The translations under genes were made by a program, and so were the position numbers. The notes under the pieces are model-generated. The model did no database searches. It worked only from the letters and a program-made list of their open reading frames with translations, and was not told the origin of the DNA. A DNA stretch of 33,679 bases from a virus (taxonomy: Duplodnaviria; Caudoviricetes): IMG/VR virus record IMGVR_UViG_3300032288_001772, positions 1-33,679 of that record; one strand, written 5' to 3'. Numbering within the stretch: the stretch's first letter is position 1; the number at the start of each line of letters is the position of its first letter. Below are positions 22,914 to 32,458 of the stretch, one piece after another.

Positions 22914-23143
22914 TAGGCACCGTCCTCGTCGTTATCACGCAGCCGCTCGCGCAGCCGTTCGAGCTTCGCCCACAACAGCACCGACCAGCCGCATACGTCT
23001 TCCAACTCCTGCTCGATCTCGTTAAGCAGGTTATCCACTGGCAGGTCAAGGCTGGCGTCGCCGTAGATGCGTGCGCCCTCGACCAGCCTTGCGCGGACCT
23101 TGGAGACGAACTTGTCGAGCGTGACCTCGATGGGGTGCTGCAT
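22913..23143 (-). CDS. Small all-alpha hypothetical protein (MazG-like acidic motif)
   Basis: MQHPIEV...GARIYGD...EIEQELED; the E-x-x-x-E-x-x-D spacing is reminiscent of all-alpha NTP pyrophosphohydrolases (tentative). Confidence 0.55.
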   Translation of the reverse strand: MQHPIEVTLDKFVSKVRARLVEGARIYGDASLDLPVDNLLNEIEQELEDVCGWSVLLWAKLERLRERLRDNDEDGA

Positions 23144-23293
23144 GCAGTACGGTGTAGCGGGATTCTGATGCGGTGCAAGAAGTTGGCCCCCTCGCCGAAG
23201 GCCAAGAACAGGAAACTCGAAAAAAATTTTCGGCTGCAAGTGCTGCAACTGCAACGACTTGCGACGGCTCGCCGACCACAACCCAAGTTGTTG

Positions 23294-23321
23294 TTGGCTC
23301 ACTGCCGATGGTGTGTATAAT
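23294..23321 (+). promoter_or_regulatory. Sigma70-type early promoter
   Basis: TTGGCT (23294-23299), 16 nt, perfect TATAAT (23316-23321); at the head of the plus-strand cluster. Confidence 0.7.
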
Positions 23322-23333
23322 AGGGGCATCGAG

Positions 23334-23368
23334 CGCGGAACGCCGCGAACGACACCGATCTTTGACAG
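23334..23368 (+). promoter_or_regulatory. Hairpin plus boxA-like antitermination element
   Basis: CGCGG-AACG-CCGCG hairpin, then GATCTTTGACAG, which resembles rrn boxA (GCTCTTTAACA), ~30 nt after the predicted start site. Confidence 0.45.
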
Positions 23369-23511
23369 TGCGAACGACCTGAACCTGCCTGCCGGACCGC
23401 AGGGCGCAATCGACAGTAGCGCCCGACCGACCAACCCGACAGTCAGGCCAACGACCCGAAGCAAAGGGCGCAGGTAGTGGGGAACGGACGCGAGTCCGCA
23501 AACTCCCGAAT

Positions 23512-23568
23512 GTGGTCTGGTGCGTAGAGCGCACCACTGACGATGGCCTCGGACAAGGCCGAAACCAC
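23512..23568 (+). ncRNA. Hammerhead ribozyme, type III (HH1)
   Basis: Stem III GUGG/CCAC; GUC site (cut after 23517); stem I UGGUGCG/CGCACCA; core CUGACGA plus one extra U; stem II GGCC/GGCC; GAAA. Confidence 0.88.
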
Positions 23569-23583
23569 TACCCGATGATAACC

Positions 23584-23841
23584 ATGAACCTTCCAGTGTT
23601 TACCCCTGAGCCGCTCACCTTCACCAGCGCCGTGCTTAACGGTCGCGACCCTAGCCGCCGCGCTTACCGCTGCGAGCACAAGAGCAGGAAGTTCACCATC
23701 AACATCGACGGCAACGTCATCACCATCCGCGAGTATGTCGAGTGGGATGGCGCGTTTATCCGCTCCACGGTGACTAAGGCCAAAGCCGACCGAATCACCA
23801 AGGCCCAGCAACTTGTCGAACGCATTACCAACAAACTCTGA
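23584..23841 (+). CDS. Hypothetical early protein
   Basis: ATG 23584 (or 23575) lies just after HH1; the upstream GTG extension overlaps the ribozyme. Confidence 0.65.
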   Translation: MNLPVFTPEPLTFTSAVLNGRDPSRRAYRCEHKSRKFTINIDGNVITIREYVEWDGAFIRSTVTKAKADRITKAQQLVERITNKL

Positions 23842-23861
23842 TCCATAACGAAAGCAACAAC

Positions 23862-24134
23862 ATGCACTACTACTCCATCACGACCGTCACCTCCCACCGC
23901 CTCTTCAGTGTCCTGCTCGCCGCGTACAGCGGCACCAACATCAAGCCCGAGCGTTGGCAAGTCGCGGAAATGGCTCGCGATCTAGCCTGCGCCTTGAACG
24001 ATAACCTTGAGTGCAAGCTTGGCAGCCGCAACTACATCTCAGGCAACGATATCGAAGACGCCATCGACGTTTTCCTCCAGCAGCAGCAACTCAACGAGAC
24101 CGTCAAGCAGATCCTTGATAACCAGAAGAAGTAA
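23862..24134 (+). CDS. Hypothetical early protein
   Basis: 90-aa ORF with an A/C-rich leader; tight packing. Confidence 0.7.
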   Translation: MHYYSITTVTSHRLFSVLLAAYSGTNIKPERWQVAEMARDLACALNDNLECKLGSRNYISGNDIEDAIDVFLQQQQLNETVKQILDNQKK

Positions 24135-24136
24135 CC

Positions 24137-24277
24137 ATGAGCCAGCAAACCATCACCGTCGCGTCGATTGACGTATTCGCAGCCCTTATCGCCAAGTTCG
24201 TACAGGAGGGCCTCACCTTCGAGGCCAGCGACGATAAGGACGGCGGCTTTGTTATCCAACTTACCGGAGGGTTCTAA
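24137..24277 (+). CDS. Hypothetical early protein (46 aa)
   Basis: MSQQTITVASIDVFAALIAKFVQEGLTFEA...LTGGF fills the gap between neighbours. Confidence 0.65.
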   Translation: MSQQTITVASIDVFAALIAKFVQEGLTFEASDDKDGGFVIQLTGGF

Positions 24278-24278
24278 A

Positions 24279-24428
24279 ATGACCGACGATAACCAAATCA
24301 CCATTCCCGATATCTACTGCCCAGCATGCGGCCACTACGACCATGCCAAGTACGGCAACATCGGCAAGCTGCTGTTCTTGCAGTGCGGCCAGTGCGGAAC
24401 CGATTTCGTGGCCAAAGACAAAACGTAG
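24279..24428 (+). CDS. Small zinc-ribbon protein (49 aa)
   Basis: CPACG...CGQCG; GGAGG upstream of ATG 24279. Confidence 0.7.
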   Translation: MTDDNQITIPDIYCPACGHYDHAKYGNIGKLLFLQCGQCGTDFVAKDKT

Positions 24429-24459
24429 AAAACCAAAACTAACTACCCCCTAAATTTCC

Positions 24460-24747
24460 ATGACCGCAACGAAGAAAACCAAAGCGTGCTTCCTCTCTCA
24501 GTTCCATGGCCGCGAAGGCGGCACCTACGTCGTGATCACGGCGTGTGGTCGCTGGGGACGCGGACCGACAATCCTTGAAGCCAAGCGCAACTGCCAGCAG
24601 CAGGGCGCTCGCAAGTTTGCGCCAGACTGCGTGCTGGTTGCATGGCAGGCGCTCGATGAGCGTGGCCTGCCCGGCGTCGATGGCGACGGCTGCCTGAGTT
24701 ACTACGGCAAGCTGGACTACCTCTGGAGGCCCAGCGACGCACGATAA
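24460..24747 (+). CDS. Hypothetical early protein
   Basis: 95-aa ORF containing WGRGPTILEAKRN. Confidence 0.7.
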   Translation: MTATKKTKACFLSQFHGREGGTYVVITACGRWGRGPTILEAKRNCQQQGARKFAPDCVLVAWQALDERGLPGVDGDGCLSYYGKLDYLWRPSDAR

Positions 24748-24751
24748 CGCC

Positions 24752-24767
24752 GCGCCCTTTGGGGCGC
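24752..24767 (+). repeat. GC hairpin copy 1 (GCGCCC-TTTG-GGGCGC)
   Basis: 4 nt after a stop codon; 15/16 identical to the copy at 25037. Confidence 0.75.
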
Positions 24768-24783
24768 AGAAAGAAAAACAACG

Positions 24784-25032
24784 ATGACAACCGAACTGAC
24801 ACACGCCTCTCTAGCCTTGTTCCTGACTCTGGCCCGCGACTCGATGGATTGGAATGGAGTCCCGCTGTTCGAAGGCAGCAAAAGGCAGTGCGGCAACCTT
24901 AGCGACCTTAAAACGAAGGGCCTACTGTCCACGCAGCAGGACGAGGAGAACCGCCTTTGCCACTGGGTAATGTTCAGCGAGTCTGGCAGGCAGCTTGCCG
25001 CCCAGCACGGCATCAACATTCCCGACAACTAA
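24784..25032 (+). CDS. Hypothetical early protein, possible winged helix
   Basis: LSDLKTKGLL...WVMFSESGRQLA resembles a wHTH wing pattern. Confidence 0.7.
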   Translation: MTTELTHASLALFLTLARDSMDWNGVPLFEGSKRQCGNLSDLKTKGLLSTQQDEENRLCHWVMFSESGRQLAAQHGINIPDN

Positions 25033-25036
25033 CTCC

Positions 25037-25052
25037 GCGCCCTTCGGGGCGC
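25037..25052 (+). repeat. GC hairpin copy 2 (GCGCCC-TTCG-GGGCGC, cUUCGg tetraloop)
   Basis: 4 nt after a stop codon and abutting HH2. Confidence 0.8.
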
Positions 25053-25108
25053 TCGGTATGCGCAGTGGTGCTGCGCACTGATGAGGCCCAGCCAAGGCCG
25101 AAACCGAG
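25052..25108 (+). ncRNA. Hammerhead ribozyme, type III (HH2)
   Basis: Stem III CUCGG/CCGAG; GUA site (cut after 25058); stem I UGCGCAG/CUGCGCA; core CUGAUGA; stem II GGCC/GGCC; GAAA; fully intergenic. Confidence 0.93.
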
Positions 25109-25115
25109 AACTAGC

Positions 25116-25463
25116 ATGAACATCAACGACACGCTCAATCATCACAAATCGCGTTTGCTCAACATTCTGGGCGAGCAGCCCGGCGCGACGGTCTACACTC
25201 TGATCACCAAGCGCAGCGATACCTCGCGCCGCGTGCGTCTGTTTGCCTGCTGCGATAACAAGCTGCACGAAATCACCAGTTCGGCAGCGGTACTTATCTT
25301 CGGCGCAAAAGTCCAGCGCGGTGACTGGGGATCGCGTACCCGCCTCAACCCAGAGGGCCTTCGGTTCGAGGGCTGCGGTTACGACGTAGGCAACCATGCG
25401 ATTGGGTTTCTGGCCTTCCAGCTTCACGGCAGCGAGGACGCGCTGAAGGAGCAGTCCCTGTGA
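25116..25463 (+). CDS. Hypothetical early protein
   Basis: ATG 7 nt after HH2; contains PGATVYT...GCGYDVG. Confidence 0.7.
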   Translation: MNINDTLNHHKSRLLNILGEQPGATVYTLITKRSDTSRRVRLFACCDNKLHEITSSAAVLIFGAKVQRGDWGSRTRLNPEGLRFEGCGYDVGNHAIGFLAFQLHGSEDALKEQSL

Positions 25464-25747
25464 CCACTGATCCCATCTACGAGTTGCCGTTCTGGGATTA
25501 TCACCTCGACATGCGCATGGAGGAGTTTGTCCGGCGCATGGCCGACGATCAAGGCATGACGCACAAGTGGCGCGCCGAGACCGACATGGAGTGCGTGATA
25601 TTACTCAGCAACATGCGCAAGTCGCGCATCACCGATAGGCCGGAAACCTCGCATGAGGAACGGCTGATTGCCGCCAAGCTTATTGGCAAGGCGCTATCGC
25701 TTCGACTTCTGATTGGAACCTACAACGAACTCAAGGAACAACAATGA
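25460..25747 (+). CDS. Hypothetical early protein
   Basis: GTGA overlap and SD AAGGAG. Confidence 0.7.
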   Translation: MTTDPIYELPFWDYHLDMRMEEFVRRMADDQGMTHKWRAETDMECVILLSNMRKSRITDRPETSHEERLIAAKLIGKALSLRLLIGTYNELKEQQ

Positions 25748-26142
25748 CCGCTACCATCAAACCTTTCAATCACTGCGAAGGCGCTCGCGTGCGCGTCTAC
25801 CGCAACCTCCGCAACAACAAGCTGAGTGTGCAGGACAAGGTCACGCGCCGAGTCATCGGGCATGTCGATCACATTGATCTGGTGCAAGCGCGTTTCATCG
25901 TGTCGCGCACCGGAGTCGAGCGCATCCGCGCAACCAAGCGCAAGCGCGTCGTTGCATTCGTCGAAGGCACCATTCAACGCTTCGACGGCTCGCATGTTCT
26001 GCATAACCGCGTTCAGTTTAATCCGTACCGCTGGGACACGTTCGTCGATACGGATGGACACGGCGTTGAAGCGGCTGCGGAGATTGTCGTGAACAGCACC
26101 GGATGGATGTGGGCCAACGGCCTGCGCTGGTCGCACTGCTGA
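25744..26142 (+). CDS. Conserved-type phage hypothetical protein
   Basis: VRVYRNL...SV...VIGH...F.VS..G..R....KRK.V.AFVEG...FNPY pattern recognisable from phage hypotheticals; ATGA overlap. Confidence 0.8.
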   Translation: MTATIKPFNHCEGARVRVYRNLRNNKLSVQDKVTRRVIGHVDHIDLVQARFIVSRTGVERIRATKRKRVVAFVEGTIQRFDGSHVLHNRVQFNPYRWDTFVDTDGHGVEAAAEIVVNSTGWMWANGLRWSHC

Positions 26143-26151
26143 CCCTAACCC

Positions 26152-26373
26152 ATGAATACCATGAACGAAATCAAACTCTACGCTCAGTGGAGCGTCATCA
26201 ATAACGCCTACATGATTCTGTTCGGCAGTGCGCCGTGCGGACTTGGATCGACCGAACGAATCTTCTGGCCCAACCTAGCGGAGTTGGCGGTCGAGTGTGC
26301 CGCGCTTGGTCTCAGGATGCGCCCGAGTGGGCGCGGGATCACGCGGCGTTGGTATCTTGAAGTTAACGAGTAA
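26152..26373 (+). CDS. Hypothetical early protein
   Basis: 73-aa ORF that fills the gap. Confidence 0.6.
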   Translation: MNTMNEIKLYAQWSVINNAYMILFGSAPCGLGSTERIFWPNLAELAVECAALGLRMRPSGRGITRRWYLEVNE

Positions 26374-26389
26374 ACATTAGGAGAAAAGC

Positions 26390-27232
26390 ATGACTACTAC
26401 CCCGATTCATCCGTTCCAGAAAGCTGGCCTTGGCATCGCACCGTTCCGGGTCCTCGCATACGAGTGCCGTCGCGGCCCGATCAAGCGCGTCGAGAACGGC
26501 GTGCTCGTCACGTACGGCAGTCCCGGCCAGCCAGTTACCGCGTGCGAGTACTGCTCGACGCCGATTGTGCACGTGTACATCATCGAGAGCAGTGACGGCA
26601 GGGAGTTCGTTGTTGGCTGCGAGTGCGTGCGCAAGACTGGCGACGCGCACCTCCTCAAGCAAAGCAAGCAGCACCTTGGCGAGTTCCGAGCCAAGCAGCG
26701 CGAGGCCCAGCGCGTAGAGCGCAAGCAAGTGTGGGAGAATCAGCGGCGCGTCGAGGTGGACGCGCAGAAGCGCGAGTGGCTCGCCGCCAACCCATGGTGG
26801 AGCCCGTTTGCCGCGAAGCATGGACAGAATCAGTTCGTGCAGTCGCTGGCCAATACGCTGCACCTCTGGGGCACGCTCAGCGAAAAGCAGGTGCAGTTTG
26901 CCCAGCGCCTGCTTGTTCAGCTTGACGTTCCAAAAGTCCCGGTGCCCATCACCGAAGGTCGCACGCGCGTCACTGGCACCATCGTCAGCATGCGCACCGA
27001 CCGGAACGGCTACGGCAGAGTCGAGACCAAGGTTCTGCTCGACGTTACGACCGACGCAGGCGCGTACCGATTGTGGGGCACGCTGCCGGACGGCGCGTAC
27101 AGGGCGGTGCGTGGCGACACGCTGGCCTTCGACGCAATCGTGCAGCGCAGCGACAGGGACGTTGCGTTTGGGTTCTACAAGCGCCCGACCAAGGTCGTGC
27201 TGACTCCGGCAGAAGCGGGGGTGGAGGCATGA
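26390..27232 (+). CDS. Zn-binding N-terminal domain, helical linker and probable C-terminal OB-fold protein
   Basis: CEYC...VGCECV, LSEKQ and EGRTRVTGTIVS...GFYKRPTK motifs; SD AGGAG. Confidence 0.75.
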   Translation: MTTTPIHPFQKAGLGIAPFRVLAYECRRGPIKRVENGVLVTYGSPGQPVTACEYCSTPIVHVYIIESSDGREFVVGCECVRKTGDAHLLKQSKQHLGEFRAKQREAQRVERKQVWENQRRVEVDAQKREWLAANPWWSPFAAKHGQNQFVQSLANTLHLWGTLSEKQVQFAQRLLVQLDVPKVPVPITEGRTRVTGTIVSMRTDRNGYGRVETKVLLDVTTDAGAYRLWGTLPDGAYRAVRGDTLAFDAIVQRSDRDVAFGFYKRPTKVVLTPAEAGVEA

Positions 27233-27471
27233 CCTCCGCCCAACTCGACAGTGACCGCCCGTACTGGGCAATCCACAAGGAGACGGCGCACAAGTTCGAC
27301 TGCTTCGAGGACTTGTGCAGGTTTATCTCAAGCCTGAGTCCGATAGTGCCGATAACCCTGCCGCTCTACTTCGGATACTTGCCGCCTCCAACTTGCGGAG
27401 CGGACGGTTCCATAACTTTCGATCCAGCAAGATTAACTTGGGTACTTAAGATTAACACGGGAGATAAATAA
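27229..27471 (+). CDS. Hypothetical protein
   Basis: ATGA overlap at 27229 with GGAGG upstream. Confidence 0.55.
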   Translation: MTSAQLDSDRPYWAIHKETAHKFDCFEDLCRFISSLSPIVPITLPLYFGYLPPPTCGADGSITFDPARLTWVLKINTGDK

Positions 27472-27473
27472 TC

Positions 27474-27716
27474 ATGGACAACTCGATAATTAGCCCGACT
27501 TGGATTGTGCGCGGTAATACCCGCAAAACAATCGAAGTCGGCGAACTACGCAACGAAACGGAAGGGGGGCGCTGGGTGTTCTGGTACTACTCCTGCCGCG
27601 CCGAAGTGTTCAAGGGCTGCACTACGGCTAGCTTTCACTGGACCTACGAACAAGCCGAAGCCGAAGCGGAACGCCGCTGGCAGGCACGATTGGAGGGCGC
27701 ATGTTCCAATATCTGA
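27474..27716 (+). CDS. Hypothetical protein
   Basis: 80-aa ORF with SD GGAG. Confidence 0.6.
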   Translation: MDNSIISPTWIVRGNTRKTIEVGELRNETEGGRWVFWYYSCRAEVFKGCTTASFHWTYEQAEAEAERRWQARLEGACSNI

Positions 27717-28147
27717 TCGCCGCCATCCTGTCCGCTTTGACTCTGGCCTACCTCGCCACCGCGCAGCGCCCCACCATCGAGCAAATCGATGCGTACCGCA
27801 AGGAACTGCGCCCGTTGCTCGACGCGATTCGACAGGTCGAGTCGGGCGGCAACGACGAGGCCACTGGAGACGGCGGCAACGCCATCGGCGCATACCAAAT
27901 CTGGATCGCCTACTGGTCCGACGCCGTCGAGTGGGTGCCGGACCTCAAGGGCGAGTACGAAGGTTGTCGTGCGCGCTGGTACGCCGAGCGCATAATGATC
28001 GCATACTGGCACCGTTATGCACGCCGGGCGCTCATCGATGGCGACTATGAAAAGCTGGCCCGGGTCCACAACGGCGGCCCCAAGGGCCACCTCAAGCAGG
28101 CAACCGAGAAGTACTGGGACAAGGTAGTCAGGCTGCTTGAGGACTGA
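27701..28147 (+). CDS. Lysozyme-fold enzyme (i-type/destabilase-like) with N-terminal signal or anchor
   Basis: AIRQVESGG (catalytic Glu), GAYQI...YW.D and ARVHNGGP.G motifs; hydrophobic first ~20 aa; SD GGAGG. Confidence 0.8.
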   Translation: MFQYLIAAILSALTLAYLATAQRPTIEQIDAYRKELRPLLDAIRQVESGGNDEATGDGGNAIGAYQIWIAYWSDAVEWVPDLKGEYEGCRARWYAERIMIAYWHRYARRALIDGDYEKLARVHNGGPKGHLKQATEKYWDKVVRLLED

Positions 28148-28165
28148 GCGCGCCACGTTCGGGAA

Positions 28166-28217
28166 TGGCGGGCGATCTCGGTGGGGGCGGTGGGGTAGTA
28201 GCCCCCCCACCCCGCCA
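28166..28217. terminator. GC-rich stem-loop between convergent operons
   Basis: TGGCGGG/CCCGCCA and GTGGGGG/CCCCCAC complementarity; no clear U-tract. Confidence 0.45.
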
Positions 28218-28221
28218 GCCT

Positions 28222-28332
28222 CTAGAAAAGCCAGCTAACCATCACGCAGAACCCGATCCACCAAACCATGCAGAACCACACGGCGAGCGCCCACACGGTC
28301 AGGCGTCCCCAGTTGATGTTTTGCTTGTTCAT
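28222..28332 (-). CDS. Small single-pass membrane protein (36 aa)
   Basis: MNKQNINWGRLTVWALAVWFCMVWWIGF...; ATGA overlap and SD GAGGG. Confidence 0.5.
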   Translation of the reverse strand: MNKQNINWGRLTVWALAVWFCMVWWIGFCVMVSWLF

Positions 28333-28652
28333 CGTTCCCTCTCCACCAAATCGCGCACTTGCTTGCGCATGATGTTCCATGCGTTGCACCAGCCGCAGAC
28401 CTCGCCGGAACTGTCCCAAATGCCCGGCTTCATGTGGCGATGGGAGGGAGCGTTGCCTTCAGGGCGTCCATCAAAGTACCTATCGCTGACGCCGCAGCGC
28501 AAAACTTCCTCGGCGGCATCAAGCAGGTTCTGCATCCGGTCAAAGTGCATCAGCACCCGGTGACTAAGCTGCCGCAGTCCGGCCCAGCTAATATTCTTAT
28601 CCGTCTCTCCGCGAAAGTCCTTCAGGATTTCTTCAAGCTGCTCTTTCTTCAC
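28329..28652 (-). CDS. Hypothetical protein with H-x-H and CxxC
   Basis: GTG start overlaps the initiator stop; contains HRHMKPGIWD...CGWC. Confidence 0.6.
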   Translation of the reverse strand: MKKEQLEEILKDFRGETDKNISWAGLRQLSHRVLMHFDRMQNLLDAAEEVLRCGVSDRYFDGRPEGNAPSHRHMKPGIWDSSGEVCGWCNAWNIMRKQVRDLVERER

Positions 28653-29416
28653 GACGATCCCCCTCTTTTCGTTCGGTACGCCACGCACTCGGTGCAGGCA
28701 CACGCCAAGCTTCCCAAGGGCATGTTGGGCATGTGGGTGACAGGCTTCTGGTAGACGGAGGTCTTCTTGGCCACCCACTCAGCCTTGAATCCCACCCAGC
28801 CGCGTAGGACACACTCCGACACGGCATCTTTCAGTTCCCAGCCAGCCTTCTGGGCCTCCCCCTCGATCAGGCGCAATGCGCCGGAGGTCAGGGGTGCCCG
28901 CTTGGCGCGGCGCAACTGCACGAAGTTAATCCAGAGGGCCTCGGGCACCGAGTCGGGGCGTTGCGCCTCCGACAGGGAGCGGGCGGTGTATTCTCTCTTC
29001 TCTGGTTTTGGTTTTGGTTTTGGTTGGTTGGACGTTTGTTCAACGTCCGTTGAACGTTCGTTGGACGGCTGTTGAACGTCCGTTGGCGGAACGCTCTGGC
29101 GACGCGCTGCGGAGGCTAGGCCAGCCTTGGCTGCCTTGGCGGACTTGTCCCGGTACTGCTGGAGGGTGTCCTCGACGCGCTTGTTGGTCCAGCCACGACC
29201 CTCGACGAGCACAAAGAACTCGCCCAGAACGGCCTTCACCTCGGCCTCGTTCGACGGCAGCCCAACCTGTCGTGCAACGACCGTTGGACATTCGTTCAAC
29301 GGACGTTCCTGTAAGTAGTACCAGTCTAGCATCCTGCGGTAAGCCAAATCCTCCAGCGGCGTTAAGTGACGGGTGTGCGCGGCGTAGTCGCCAACGTGGA
29401 ATGGGTAGTATTTCAC
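28649..29416 (-). CDS. Replication initiator, YdaU/DUF1376 family
   Basis: YYPFHVGDY...T.HL..LE..AYRR.LD.YY N-terminus, an iteron-bearing linker and a C-terminal RGW.GFKA.W domain. Confidence 0.85.
   Translation of the reverse strand: MKYYPFHVGDYAAHTRHLTPLEDLAYRRMLDWYYLQERPLNECPTVVARQVGLPSNEAEVKAVLGEFFVLVEGRGWTNKRVEDTLQQYRDKSAKAAKAGLASAARRQSVPPTDVQQPSNERSTDVEQTSNQPKPKPKPEKREYTARSLSEAQRPDSVPEALWINFVQLRRAKRAPLTSGALRLIEGEAQKAGWELKDAVSECVLRGWVGFKAEWVAKKTSVYQKPVTHMPNMPLGSLACACTECVAYRTKRGGSS
29028..29093. repeat. Six tandem 11-bp iteron-like repeats (TTG[A/G]ACGNNNG), putative origin A
   Basis: TTGGACGTTTG TTCAACGTCCG TTGAACGTTCG TTGGACGGCTG TTGAACGTCCG TTGGCGGAACG, next to a (TGGTTT)n tract. Confidence 0.8.
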
Positions 29417-29426
29417 GGTGGCTGCC

Positions 29427-29627
29427 TCAGGCGCTACGGCCACCCTTCATCAGGTCCCGCAGCAACTGCCGACGTTTCCGAACGCCTTCCGCCGTGCGAG
29501 CATTTGAGCAAGAGACGCACGTGCAGTTGATGATCCAACGTAAGGTGCCGCCACAAACCTTGCAGGGCTTCCCTTCGTACTTGGTCTGGCCTTCCATCGC
29601 GGCCTTGGTTCTGGGTGATTCGTTCAT
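29427..29627 (-). CDS. Small Cys-rich (zinc-finger) protein, copy A
   Basis: YEGKPCKVCGGTLRW..NCTCVSC. Confidence 0.75.
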   Translation of the reverse strand: MNESPRTKAAMEGQTKYEGKPCKVCGGTLRWIINCTCVSCSNARTAEGVRKRRQLLRDLMKGGRSA

Positions 29628-30893: not shown

Positions 30894-31739
30894 TTAGTCA
30901 GTGCAGTTGCAGGGAAGGCCGTCTTCTTGGACAGGGTCATCAAACAGCCATCCCTGTCGCTTCACCAGCAAAGCCAACGCCTCGTACTTGGGACGATCAA
31001 GCCTAAACACCTTTCCGTTTCCGGTTGCAGCAATATCCGTCCTAGACTCTTGCTTGATCCACCACTCAGCCGAATCTGGCTCTGCTTTCATAATCTTCAG
31101 CAGGCGTTCCTTGGTTTTGAGAAAGCACAAGGAGCAGTTGCCAAAGCTGTTGTCGCCGCCTGGTAGCTGAAGATCAAAATTGTTGTTCTTCCAGAACTCA
31201 AGGACGTGGGTCACGTCGTGGCCCGCTGCGTACATGGGGCACTCGATTTCCTCGGCGGCTGTGTCGCCCTTGATCTTGGCAACCCGCCTAGGTTCGTCAG
31301 CTCGCAGGCCGATGGAACAAGTCCAGGAGTCCCAGCCCAAACTACGGCAAAACCGTTTGCCAGTTCTGATCTTCAGCTCTGAGGTGCAGAACCTTTGCTG
31401 CGGGTTAGGCAAGGAGCCCTTGGCTTTGATCAGGTCGGCAAACGGTTCCCCGTTTCGAGAGGCCGTCTCGTAGTTGACCACTTTAAAGCTGTGTTCGTCG
31501 TTGACCCGCTGGTATTCTAGCCAAACGAGCGGCCTCCAGTTGGTTTCGATGTCTCTCAGAAAATCGTAGGTCTTGGGGTGCTCAAGGCCGGTGTTGCAGA
31601 AGACTGGGATCACGTCATCCGGCAACTTGCCGTCGTAAGCCTCAAGGACCTTGTGAAGCATGAACCCGCTGGTTCTGCCCCCTGACACGTTGATGAGTGC
31701 AGGGCCTTCAATCCGGTATGGGTTCCTTGTGGCGTTCAT
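30894..31739 (-). CDS. Phosphoadenosine phosphosulfate reductase-family (PP-loop) protein
   Basis: PP-loop SGGRTS, FCNTG.EH..T, RFCT.ELK, IGLRADE..R, NC..CFLK and C-terminal C.C.D motifs. ATG 31739 overlaps the upstream stop. Confidence 0.85.
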   Translation of the reverse strand: MNATRNPYRIEGPALINVSGGRTSGFMLHKVLEAYDGKLPDDVIPVFCNTGLEHPKTYDFLRDIETNWRPLVWLEYQRVNDEHSFKVVNYETASRNGEPFADLIKAKGSLPNPQQRFCTSELKIRTGKRFCRSLGWDSWTCSIGLRADEPRRVAKIKGDTAAEEIECPMYAAGHDVTHVLEFWKNNNFDLQLPGGDNSFGNCSLCFLKTKERLLKIMKAEPDSAEWWIKQESRTDIAATGNGKVFRLDRPKYEALALLVKRQGWLFDDPVQEDGLPCNCTD

Positions 31740-32458
31740 GCGGTCACCGTCCTCTTCGCCCGGTACTGGACACAGCCCTGGCAGTTGCAGGCTGCGGTCC
31801 CCAAGGGCATGTTCGGCATGTGCTGGACATCCTTGGACAGCGGCTTGCCGTTGATGGTCTTGGTCACCCAGTCGGCCTTGAAGCCCTGCCAGCCCCTGAC
31901 CACGCATTCCTTGATGGCAGCCTCCAAGGTCCACCCAGCCTTCTCCGCCTCGGCCTTGATGCCGTCCAAGGCCACCTCGGTCATGGGGGCCTTCTTGGCC
32001 TTGCGCACGGCTAGGTAGTCCTTCCAAAGGTTCTCAGGAACGTCCGAAGGACAAGGAAGAGAATACAGCGACCGCGTAGCGGGAGCCTCTTCTCTTCTCT
32101 CCTCTTCTCTTCTCTTCTCTAGGCTAGCAGGTTGATAGCACTCTGCTAGCAGGTTGCTAGCAGGTTGCTCCGGTTCTGCTAGCACGTTGCTAGCACTCTG
32201 CTCCAGCCATGGAGAGAGTCTTGTAAGTAGCTTGCTGGTATCGGCTTCCTTCATTCTCAGCCTGAAGGCCAGTTGCTTGAGGTGTGGCAGTTGCCCTTTG
32301 TCCTCAGCGGCGATGAGCCAGAGCATGATGAGTGCCTTGGCATCGTCCCCCGACAGGTTGTGCCACTCCACGTCGTCCAGGATGGACTTGTAGAGCTTGA
32401 TCCAGTGGGGGCTACGGTCCTTGTAGTGCTGGAACTTCTCCCAGTTCTTGATCTTCAC
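31736..32458 (-). CDS. Second replication initiator (replisome-organiser-type N-terminus)
   Basis: IKNWEKFQHYKDR.P.WIKLY..IL.D.EW..L N-terminus, an iteron linker and a C-terminal domain paralogous to 28649-29416. Confidence 0.8.
   Translation of the reverse strand: MKIKNWEKFQHYKDRSPHWIKLYKSILDDVEWHNLSGDDAKALIMLWLIAAEDKGQLPHLKQLAFRLRMKEADTSKLLTRLSPWLEQSASNVLAEPEQPASNLLAECYQPASLEKRREEERREEAPATRSLYSLPCPSDVPENLWKDYLAVRKAKKAPMTEVALDGIKAEAEKAGWTLEAAIKECVVRGWQGFKADWVTKTINGKPLSKDVQHMPNMPLGTAACNCQGCVQYRAKRTVTA
32123..32207. repeat. Seven to eight tandem 11-bp iteron-like repeats (GCTAGCANNNT), putative origin B
   Basis: GCTAGCAGGTT GATAGCACTCT GCTAGCAGGTT GCTAGCAGGTT GCTCCGGTTCT GCTAGCACGTT GCTAGCACTCT, next to a (CTCTT)n tract at 32087-32120. 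Confidence 0.85.

Follow-up and report, generated by a model that had tools for sequence, protein, structure and literature searches.

The junction between two small genes of a podovirus-like phage contig carries what is, judged by its sequence and predicted fold, a genuine type III hammerhead motif in the usual phage setting (HH2; Table 1), with self-cleavage predicted. The same strand carries a further hammerhead (HH1) 1.54 kb upstream. We consider it reasonably probable that the two constitutively cut one transcript into a leader of ~190 nt, a six-gene piece and a downstream piece, with the ends capped by RNA structure. The features of the locus are listed by their position in the window, that is, the whole stretch of 33,679 nucleotides that was analysed.

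Table 1. Features of the hammerhead locus, with positions in the window
Feature	Position	Strand	Details and basis
Sigma-70-like promoter candidate, operon start	23294..23321	+	10/12 consensus; top of 4 matches, 3.8 expected by chance
HH1, type III hammerhead	23512..23568	+	Extra U after CUGACGA core; core scan and helix parse; predicted cut 23517/23518
Sister hairpin	24752..24767	+	Same stem as 25037..25052, UUUG loop, no ribozyme; 91% direct repeat D10
Upstream ORF, 82 aa	24784..25032	+	TAA 25030-32; no PHROG/Pfam match
cUUCGg hairpin, 6 bp	25037..25052	+	GCGCCC-UUCG-GGGCGC, flush with stem III; pair probability 0.94; -11.2 kcal/mol
HH2, type III hammerhead	25052..25108	+	Canonical core; sequence, fold and Rfam; predicted cut A25058/U25059
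Stem-loop I of HH2, 7 bp	25059..25077	+	Stem 25059-65/25071-77, loop UGGUG; 6/7 pairs covary
Predicted loop I-loop II pairing	25066..25094	+	UGG 25066-68 / CCA 25092-94; one compensatory change
Downstream ORF, 115 aa	25116..25463	+	Single Met; weak GAG SD-like site; no PHROG/Pfam match

A preliminary description of this DNA had placed a stop codon, a hairpin, a hammerhead and an ATG in close succession at this junction, and all four are found where it had put them when read directly from the sequence. HH2 combines the core segments CUGAUGA (25078-84) and GAAA (25100-03) with a cleavage triplet GUA (25056-58; UH site U25057-A25058), a stem II at 25085-88/25096-99 with loop CAGCCAA, and a stem III with its 5' strand at 25052/3-57 and its 3' strand at 25103-08; the ATG at 25116 lies 7 nt past 25108, the end of stem III. 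This three-helix arrangement, with stems I and II closed and stem III open, is the minimum-energy fold, and 25052-25108 has a folding z of -2.5, with equal stability in 3 of 200 shuffles. The Rfam type III model RF00008 (clan CL00010) matches HH2 over its full length (model positions 1-54 of 54) with 41.1 bits and E 1.4e-6. The gathering score of 48.5 bits is not reached, and a search of the window at the gathering threshold returned no match; that score is a curation cut-off, and HH2 has the structural features of the family. These include the canonical core, the closed stems I and II, the open stem III, the U starting loop I and the A ending loop II, whereas the score, the triplet (GUA rather than GUC) and the phage DNA context set HH2 apart; an A at the same triplet position occurs in 12 of 81 members of the comparison panel described below, among the matches listed. 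No other Rfam family matched with E<4 within 23000-28400.

Position C25052 is common to the upstream hairpin and stem III, so that stem III has 5 bp once the hairpin is complete and 6 bp otherwise. The computed probability of stem III is 0.2-0.4, and within 0.5 kcal/mol of the HH2 fold there is an alternative, inactive structure that engages the core through pairing with UCGG. At the end of the 5' product of HH2, a weak 3-bp fold-back is seen.

Comparison with relatives supports the secondary structure: in an alignment of four sequences including HH2, pairing extends to 74 of 76 cells, and both partners have changed in 9 of the 19 pairs. The two loops of HH2 also occur in L283/L329 and L354. 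The proposal of the preliminary description that loops I and II pair through UGG/CCA gains a compensatory change at one position, where G25068-C25092, one of the nine doubly changed pairs, is replaced by C-G in L299/L331/L359 (one distinct sequence, with loops UGCUG/CAGGCAA); this is a single event, and the two remaining pairs are invariant among the four aligned sequences. Across the panel, complementarity between loops I and II is 2.54, compared with 2.13 +/- 0.08 when permuted (n=74). Contacts between these loops have been described as accelerating cleavage at low Mg2+ (PMC6155905). The UGG/CCA register was also tried on HH1, which it does not fit (2 complementary bases).

The minus strand of the contig carries genes for terminase, a head-tail adaptor (portal-type) and capsid, and 14 small ORFs form a plus-strand island downstream of the promoter-like site. 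The promoter candidate is counted by its position alone, because almost as many consensus matches are expected by chance as were found. HH1 precedes the first ORF of the island and HH2 follows six ORFs further on; both have coding-strand orientation and sit at gene boundaries, and together they bracket six ORFs of this phage contig. In both cases an ATG lies 6-7 nt past stem III, and the gene behind HH1 may start at an in-frame ATG 15 nt away. A complete record of 43,234 bases (G001), identical to the window across the 6,345 bases compared, has no further valid hammerhead (three pattern matches, one of them without helices). The nearest cultured relative of the capsid protein is that of Limnohabitans phage DC33 (78% identity); no hammerhead was found by pattern scan in DC33 or in a second capsid relative, MW202640.

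A homolog search with the ORF upstream of HH2 returned only itself. For the ORF downstream, an ESM Atlas search gave no match of 0.8 or more and a search for related loci returned only the identical record L325. Its one homolog, 83% identical, is equally long, and this agreement speaks for translation beginning at ATG 25116. The same frame is open from a TTG at 24957 (24957-25463, 168 aa) through both hairpin and ribozyme, probably by chance. At the junction of the plus-strand island with minus-strand genes, a G+C-rich inverted repeat (28180-28215) is a possible operon end. The contig also holds two replication-initiator-like genes (28649-29443 and 31736-32458), and both genes contain 11-nt tandem repeats (at 29023-29085 and 32123-32210, respectively).

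HH1 shares an identical loop I and a nearly identical loop II with L169/L328; neither HH1 nor its leader has an Rfam match at E<=5. The leader (23325-23517), for which no homolog was found among the loci fetched, is structured (z -2.1 for 23325-23600), with a short hairpin between the promoter candidate and HH1. It also contains, near 23357-23367, a motif that we take to resemble an antitermination boxA.

The cUUCGg hairpin directly upstream of HH2 has counterparts in the same phage. The arrangement GCGCCC-N4-GGGCGC occurs three times (24752-24767, 25037-25052 and 26319-26334), against 0.02 copies expected, and nowhere else in the 43 kb of G001. The sister hairpin at 24752-67 begins 4 nt past the preceding stop codon, and in a related freshwater-metagenome contig its loop is UACG with the stem intact, among the matches listed; the third copy lies within ORF 26152-26373. 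The recurrence of the stem at a junction without a ribozyme means that the hairpin is not exclusive to ribozymes, and the ribozyme-free copy after a stop codon, together with the UACG loop variant, looks like a real RNA hairpin in general use at gene boundaries. The three copies are most likely RNA hairpins, but they might also act at the DNA level, as an operator or a recombination site. An intrinsic terminator was considered for the hairpin at 25037-52 and rejected, as it has no U tract and falls outside the 12 terminator-like sites.

For comparison with other hammerheads, a panel was assembled by pattern scans, with types I and III assigned by the pairing rule alone and a bias imposed by the patterns themselves (stem II GGCC/GGCC, with GGU/ACC in two scans). 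Copies of this phage aside, the scans yielded at least 122 type III loci, at least 199 type I loci and at least 47 unclassified cores. Once L333-L369 were set aside, with L354 kept, at least 121 and at least 196 remained (L359 and L367 repeat viral loci); de-replication at 85% left at least 81 and at least 139, and a flank-length filter left at least 75 and at least 129. The metagenome scan contributed 37 loci, 34 of them without a valid 7-bp stem I or unparsed and mostly A+T-rich; a narrow hammerhead pattern had zero matches in bacterial genomes.

Among the matches listed, 46 of 75 type III rows carry a hairpin that reaches -10 kcal/mol or better and terminates no more than 6 nt from stem III, compared with 20/75 and 21/75 by the same criterion 45 and 85 nt upstream. 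Without this window, an adjoining hairpin of this strength is found in 44 of 73 type III but 24 of 129 type I rows among the matches listed, and stricter de-replication at 70% gives 22/42 and 12/69, with the same limitation. Type I ribozymes have a terminal stem III hairpin of their own (median -10.7; -8 or better in 98/129 among the matches listed). Taken with the adjoining hairpin of type III, this indicates that, in both topologies, the 3' end created by the cut tends to be a hairpin. At the other side of the cut, the downstream product would start with a 5' hairpin of -6 or better in 73 of the 75 type III rows among the matches listed.

The type III excess is partly a G+C effect. Among the matches listed, it is significant in two of four G+C bins; the 60-70% bin has 12/26 vs 9/27 (p 0.41) and the bin below 50% has 2/6 vs 3/51 (p 0.08). 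Measured against shuffles, upstream 41-mers reach z<=-2 in 18/75 type III and 12/129 type I rows (among the matches listed), and a set from bacterial genomes gives a weak replication (12/20 vs 6/20 and 8/20). Presence of the hairpin with respect to an upstream ORF does not differ significantly (31/44 vs 15/31 among the matches listed, p 0.06). In six loci (L299, L262, L166, L320, L040 and L143), sequence 5' of stem III can pair with the 5' strand of stem III; such a fold-back could turn the cut end into a hairpin almost without a tail. Four others (L091, L264, L394 and L402) share the motif TTCTTTGACAA 5' of stem III in place of a flush hairpin.

These counts bear on the earlier reading of HH2 as an insulator: the difference between types III and I gives comparative support to its capped upstream end, whereas the translation gate that formed its other half is poorly supported, as set out further below. 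With capped ends, the mechanism would run as follows. We infer co-transcription of the small genes from the promoter at 23294 and cutting by both ribozymes in vivo. The HH1 cut would free the leader. With the HH2 cut, at A25058/U25059, six genes would be left on a piece of 1,541 nt (23518-25058), followed by a further piece from 25059. At its 3' end the six-gene piece would carry the cUUCGg hairpin and a 6-nt tail, and the hairpin would slow 3' exonucleases; the piece from 25059 would have a 5'-OH and open with the 7-bp stem-loop I. Each block of genes would thereby receive fixed ends and its own half-life in an insulator-like manner, with no need for a host nuclease. A parallel is the long early transcript of T7, which RNase III cleaves between genes to give pieces whose ends are structured; that cut is made by a protein of the host, whereas here the RNA is proposed to cut itself.

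Cutting of polycistronic RNA by clustered phage hammerheads is not new, and HH2 fits the kind already described in 2011 in passages of Perreault et al. (PMC3088659). There, multiple hammerheads flank blocks of genes in prophages, with a pseudoknot between loops, and processing into shorter mRNAs was proposed (PMC3088659), a proposal repeated by Weinberg et al. 2019 (PMC6765202). Tandem prophage hammerheads are reported to cleave both in vitro and in E. coli (PMC3088659, PMC6765202). The present locus resembles those clusters in having coding-strand ribozymes that bound a short block of small genes with variable neighbours; for HHphage of HF1/HF2, a start codon 13 nt on is given (PMC3088659). 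The main text of that article describes no upstream hairpin ('hairpin' appears twice, in other senses), and its Dataset S1 and Figures S1-S5 may show such elements. A literature search of non-subscription main texts did not find the upstream-hairpin rule, and passages in two articles still call the purpose of bacterial and phage hammerheads undefined (PMC6765202, PMC6155905). What the panel offers is a testable design rule, namely that, for either permutation of the ribozyme, the upstream product tends to have a hairpin as its 3' end, external in type III and formed by stem III in type I. The HH2 locus is one more example of it.

Two engineered or natural systems are close enough to invite comparison. 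In the RiboJ of Lou and colleagues from 2012, the extra hairpin reportedly sits on the downstream mRNA, before the RBS. The likeness to HH2 is that a hammerhead cut fixes the downstream 5' end and that an accessory hairpin is present, as the RiboJ passages of PMC7536230 indicate; the hairpin of HH2 lies instead on the upstream, gene-carrying product, and no downstream hairpin of the RiboJ type was found. The glmS ribozyme also self-cleaves before a gene and leaves a 5'-OH mRNA, but is metabolite-dependent and leads to decay by RNase J1, according to passages of PMC6765202 and PMC3997798; no ligand-binding part or trigger is visible in HH2. For RNA viruses of eukaryotes, initiation of translation that depends on a ribozyme has been reported (PMC13725137), but in a different system.

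The hairpin might instead serve mainly as a folding aid that stacks on the short, open stem III or keeps upstream sequence and the terminating ribosome away from it, or as a gene-boundary element, with end protection secondary. Among the matches listed, no gap separates it from the ribozyme in 34 of 61 type III but 9 of 62 type I folds, as coaxial stacking needs, and the hairpin added in RiboJ is described, in the passages concerned, as stabilising ribozyme folding (PMC7536230). The sister copy after a stop codon without a ribozyme and the copy within an ORF also speak for this explanation. However, hairpin strength shows no correlation with the length of stem III (rho -0.07, p 0.57 among the matches listed), type I ribozymes, likewise with a short open helix, are without such a hairpin, and hairpin and stem III compete for C25052, and we regard this explanation as unlikely. 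Protection of the upstream end may itself be incomplete: in E. coli, exonucleolytic decay is already promoted when a 3' stem-loop is extended by five A residues (PMC3997798), so that the 6-nt tail may not protect fully.

For the downstream product, the cut could have the opposite effect and destabilise the RNA, its 5'-OH offering entry to a 5' exonuclease as with glmS and leaving a brief burst of the downstream genes. An RNA with a 5'-OH end resists RNase E, the enzyme on which the Limnohabitans group relies. A paired 5' end also hinders RNase E, which favours an accessible 5' monophosphate, whereas RNase J1 degrades the 5'-OH glmS mRNA, as stated in parts of PMC3997798; whether protection or decay follows thus depends on the host. 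A ribozyme of the same class (L383) in a contig binned as Planctomycetota leaves the host group wide, but the cultured phage with the closest capsid relative (78% identity) has Limnohabitans as its host, and the downstream product would begin with a 7-bp hairpin, though that stem belongs to the ribozyme fold anyway, and destabilisation appears very unlikely. Even less probable is an inactive or neutral passenger brought in with a mobile gene module. The competing inactive fold, the lack of hammerheads in DC33 and MW202640 by pattern scan, the variation of downstream genes among relatives and the dense divergence of a related contig right after the ATG would fit a passenger. Against it stand the perfect core, the covarying stems and loop pair, and the absence of any substitution at 24914-25119 in that related contig, among the matches listed.

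The divergence amounts to 32 substitutions in 25120-25315 of the related contig vs at least 8 in 24400-25119, among the matches listed, and suggests a swap of gene alleles beginning directly after the ATG of ORF 25116. An HH2-type ribozyme in L283 precedes a different gene, one in common with L354 (45%). Upstream of that ribozyme, L283:18-251 encodes a homolog of the zinc-ribbon ORF 24279-24428 of the window (49%, 41 aa). An Ocr-like identity of the genes behind L283 and L354, considered because of a resemblance, had no Pfam or PHROG support.

That HH2 gates translation, as had been suggested, receives little support from the placement of the ATG, the location of the SD or the opening costs. 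The 3' strand of stem III does lie near the site where a ribosome would bind, given the ATG 7 nt on, but the SD-like bases it contains amount to a 3-nt GAG (-3.0 kcal/mol). In the panel, the distance from stem III to the ATG has a median of 20 nt, and 4 of the 69 remaining type III rows have it at 8 nt or less; where an SD reaches -4 or better (52 rows), stem III includes some base of the SD in 7 and half or more of it in 1 (all among the matches listed). Relatives with the same loops have their ATG, of a different gene, 24 nt (L283) and 22 nt (L354) from stem III, and ribozymes of the same class (L246 and L383) have it 14 and 15 nt away. Opening the region -13..+3 at HH2 costs 3.0 kcal/mol before and 3.1 after cleavage, and opening -20..+13 costs 7.5 kcal/mol before and after. 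The gain from cleavage is -0.1 to 1.3 kcal/mol at 37 C and up to 3.1 at 15 C with one construct, a range covering 15 temperature/length combinations and two 5' starts in a folding model that leaves out core and tertiary contacts. No SD that is sequestered and then freed was found at HH2, and it is unlikely to be a regulated translation switch.

A gate in which uncleaved stem III would hide the start of ORF 25116 until cleavage frees it, or a loading ribosome would block folding, has some points in its favour. In this phage the ATG follows either hammerhead by 6-7 nt, a short distance that is rare in the panel; the opening cost at HH1 drops by 2.5-3.5 kcal/mol on cleavage in two of three regions tested; and the contacts left out by the model would deepen the block. 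These points are set against the small gain of HH2 at 37 C, the single panel row with its SD mostly in stem III, the longer distances in the four relatives, the 3-nt GAG of HH2 and the alternative start at HH1, as well as the lack of a visible ligand input. Moreover, the blocking fold is the fast-cleaving fold, so any gate would be transient, and we judge one improbable. An SD of -4 or better is missing from six of the first seven genes of the operon, which would permit a short spacer on that ground alone. It is similarly improbable that, in this SD-poor operon, the ribozymes are placed against start codons on purpose, cutting before translation and so coupling processing to translation; if true, each downstream block would be translated only once cut free and capped.

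An unannotated pair of hammerhead motifs, type III (core at 686) and type I (core at 2578), lies upstream of the RNA polymerase gene in Rhizobium phage RHEph01 (L402, NC_047738.1). With both types near the left end of a cultured phage, a test of the hairpin rule becomes practical.
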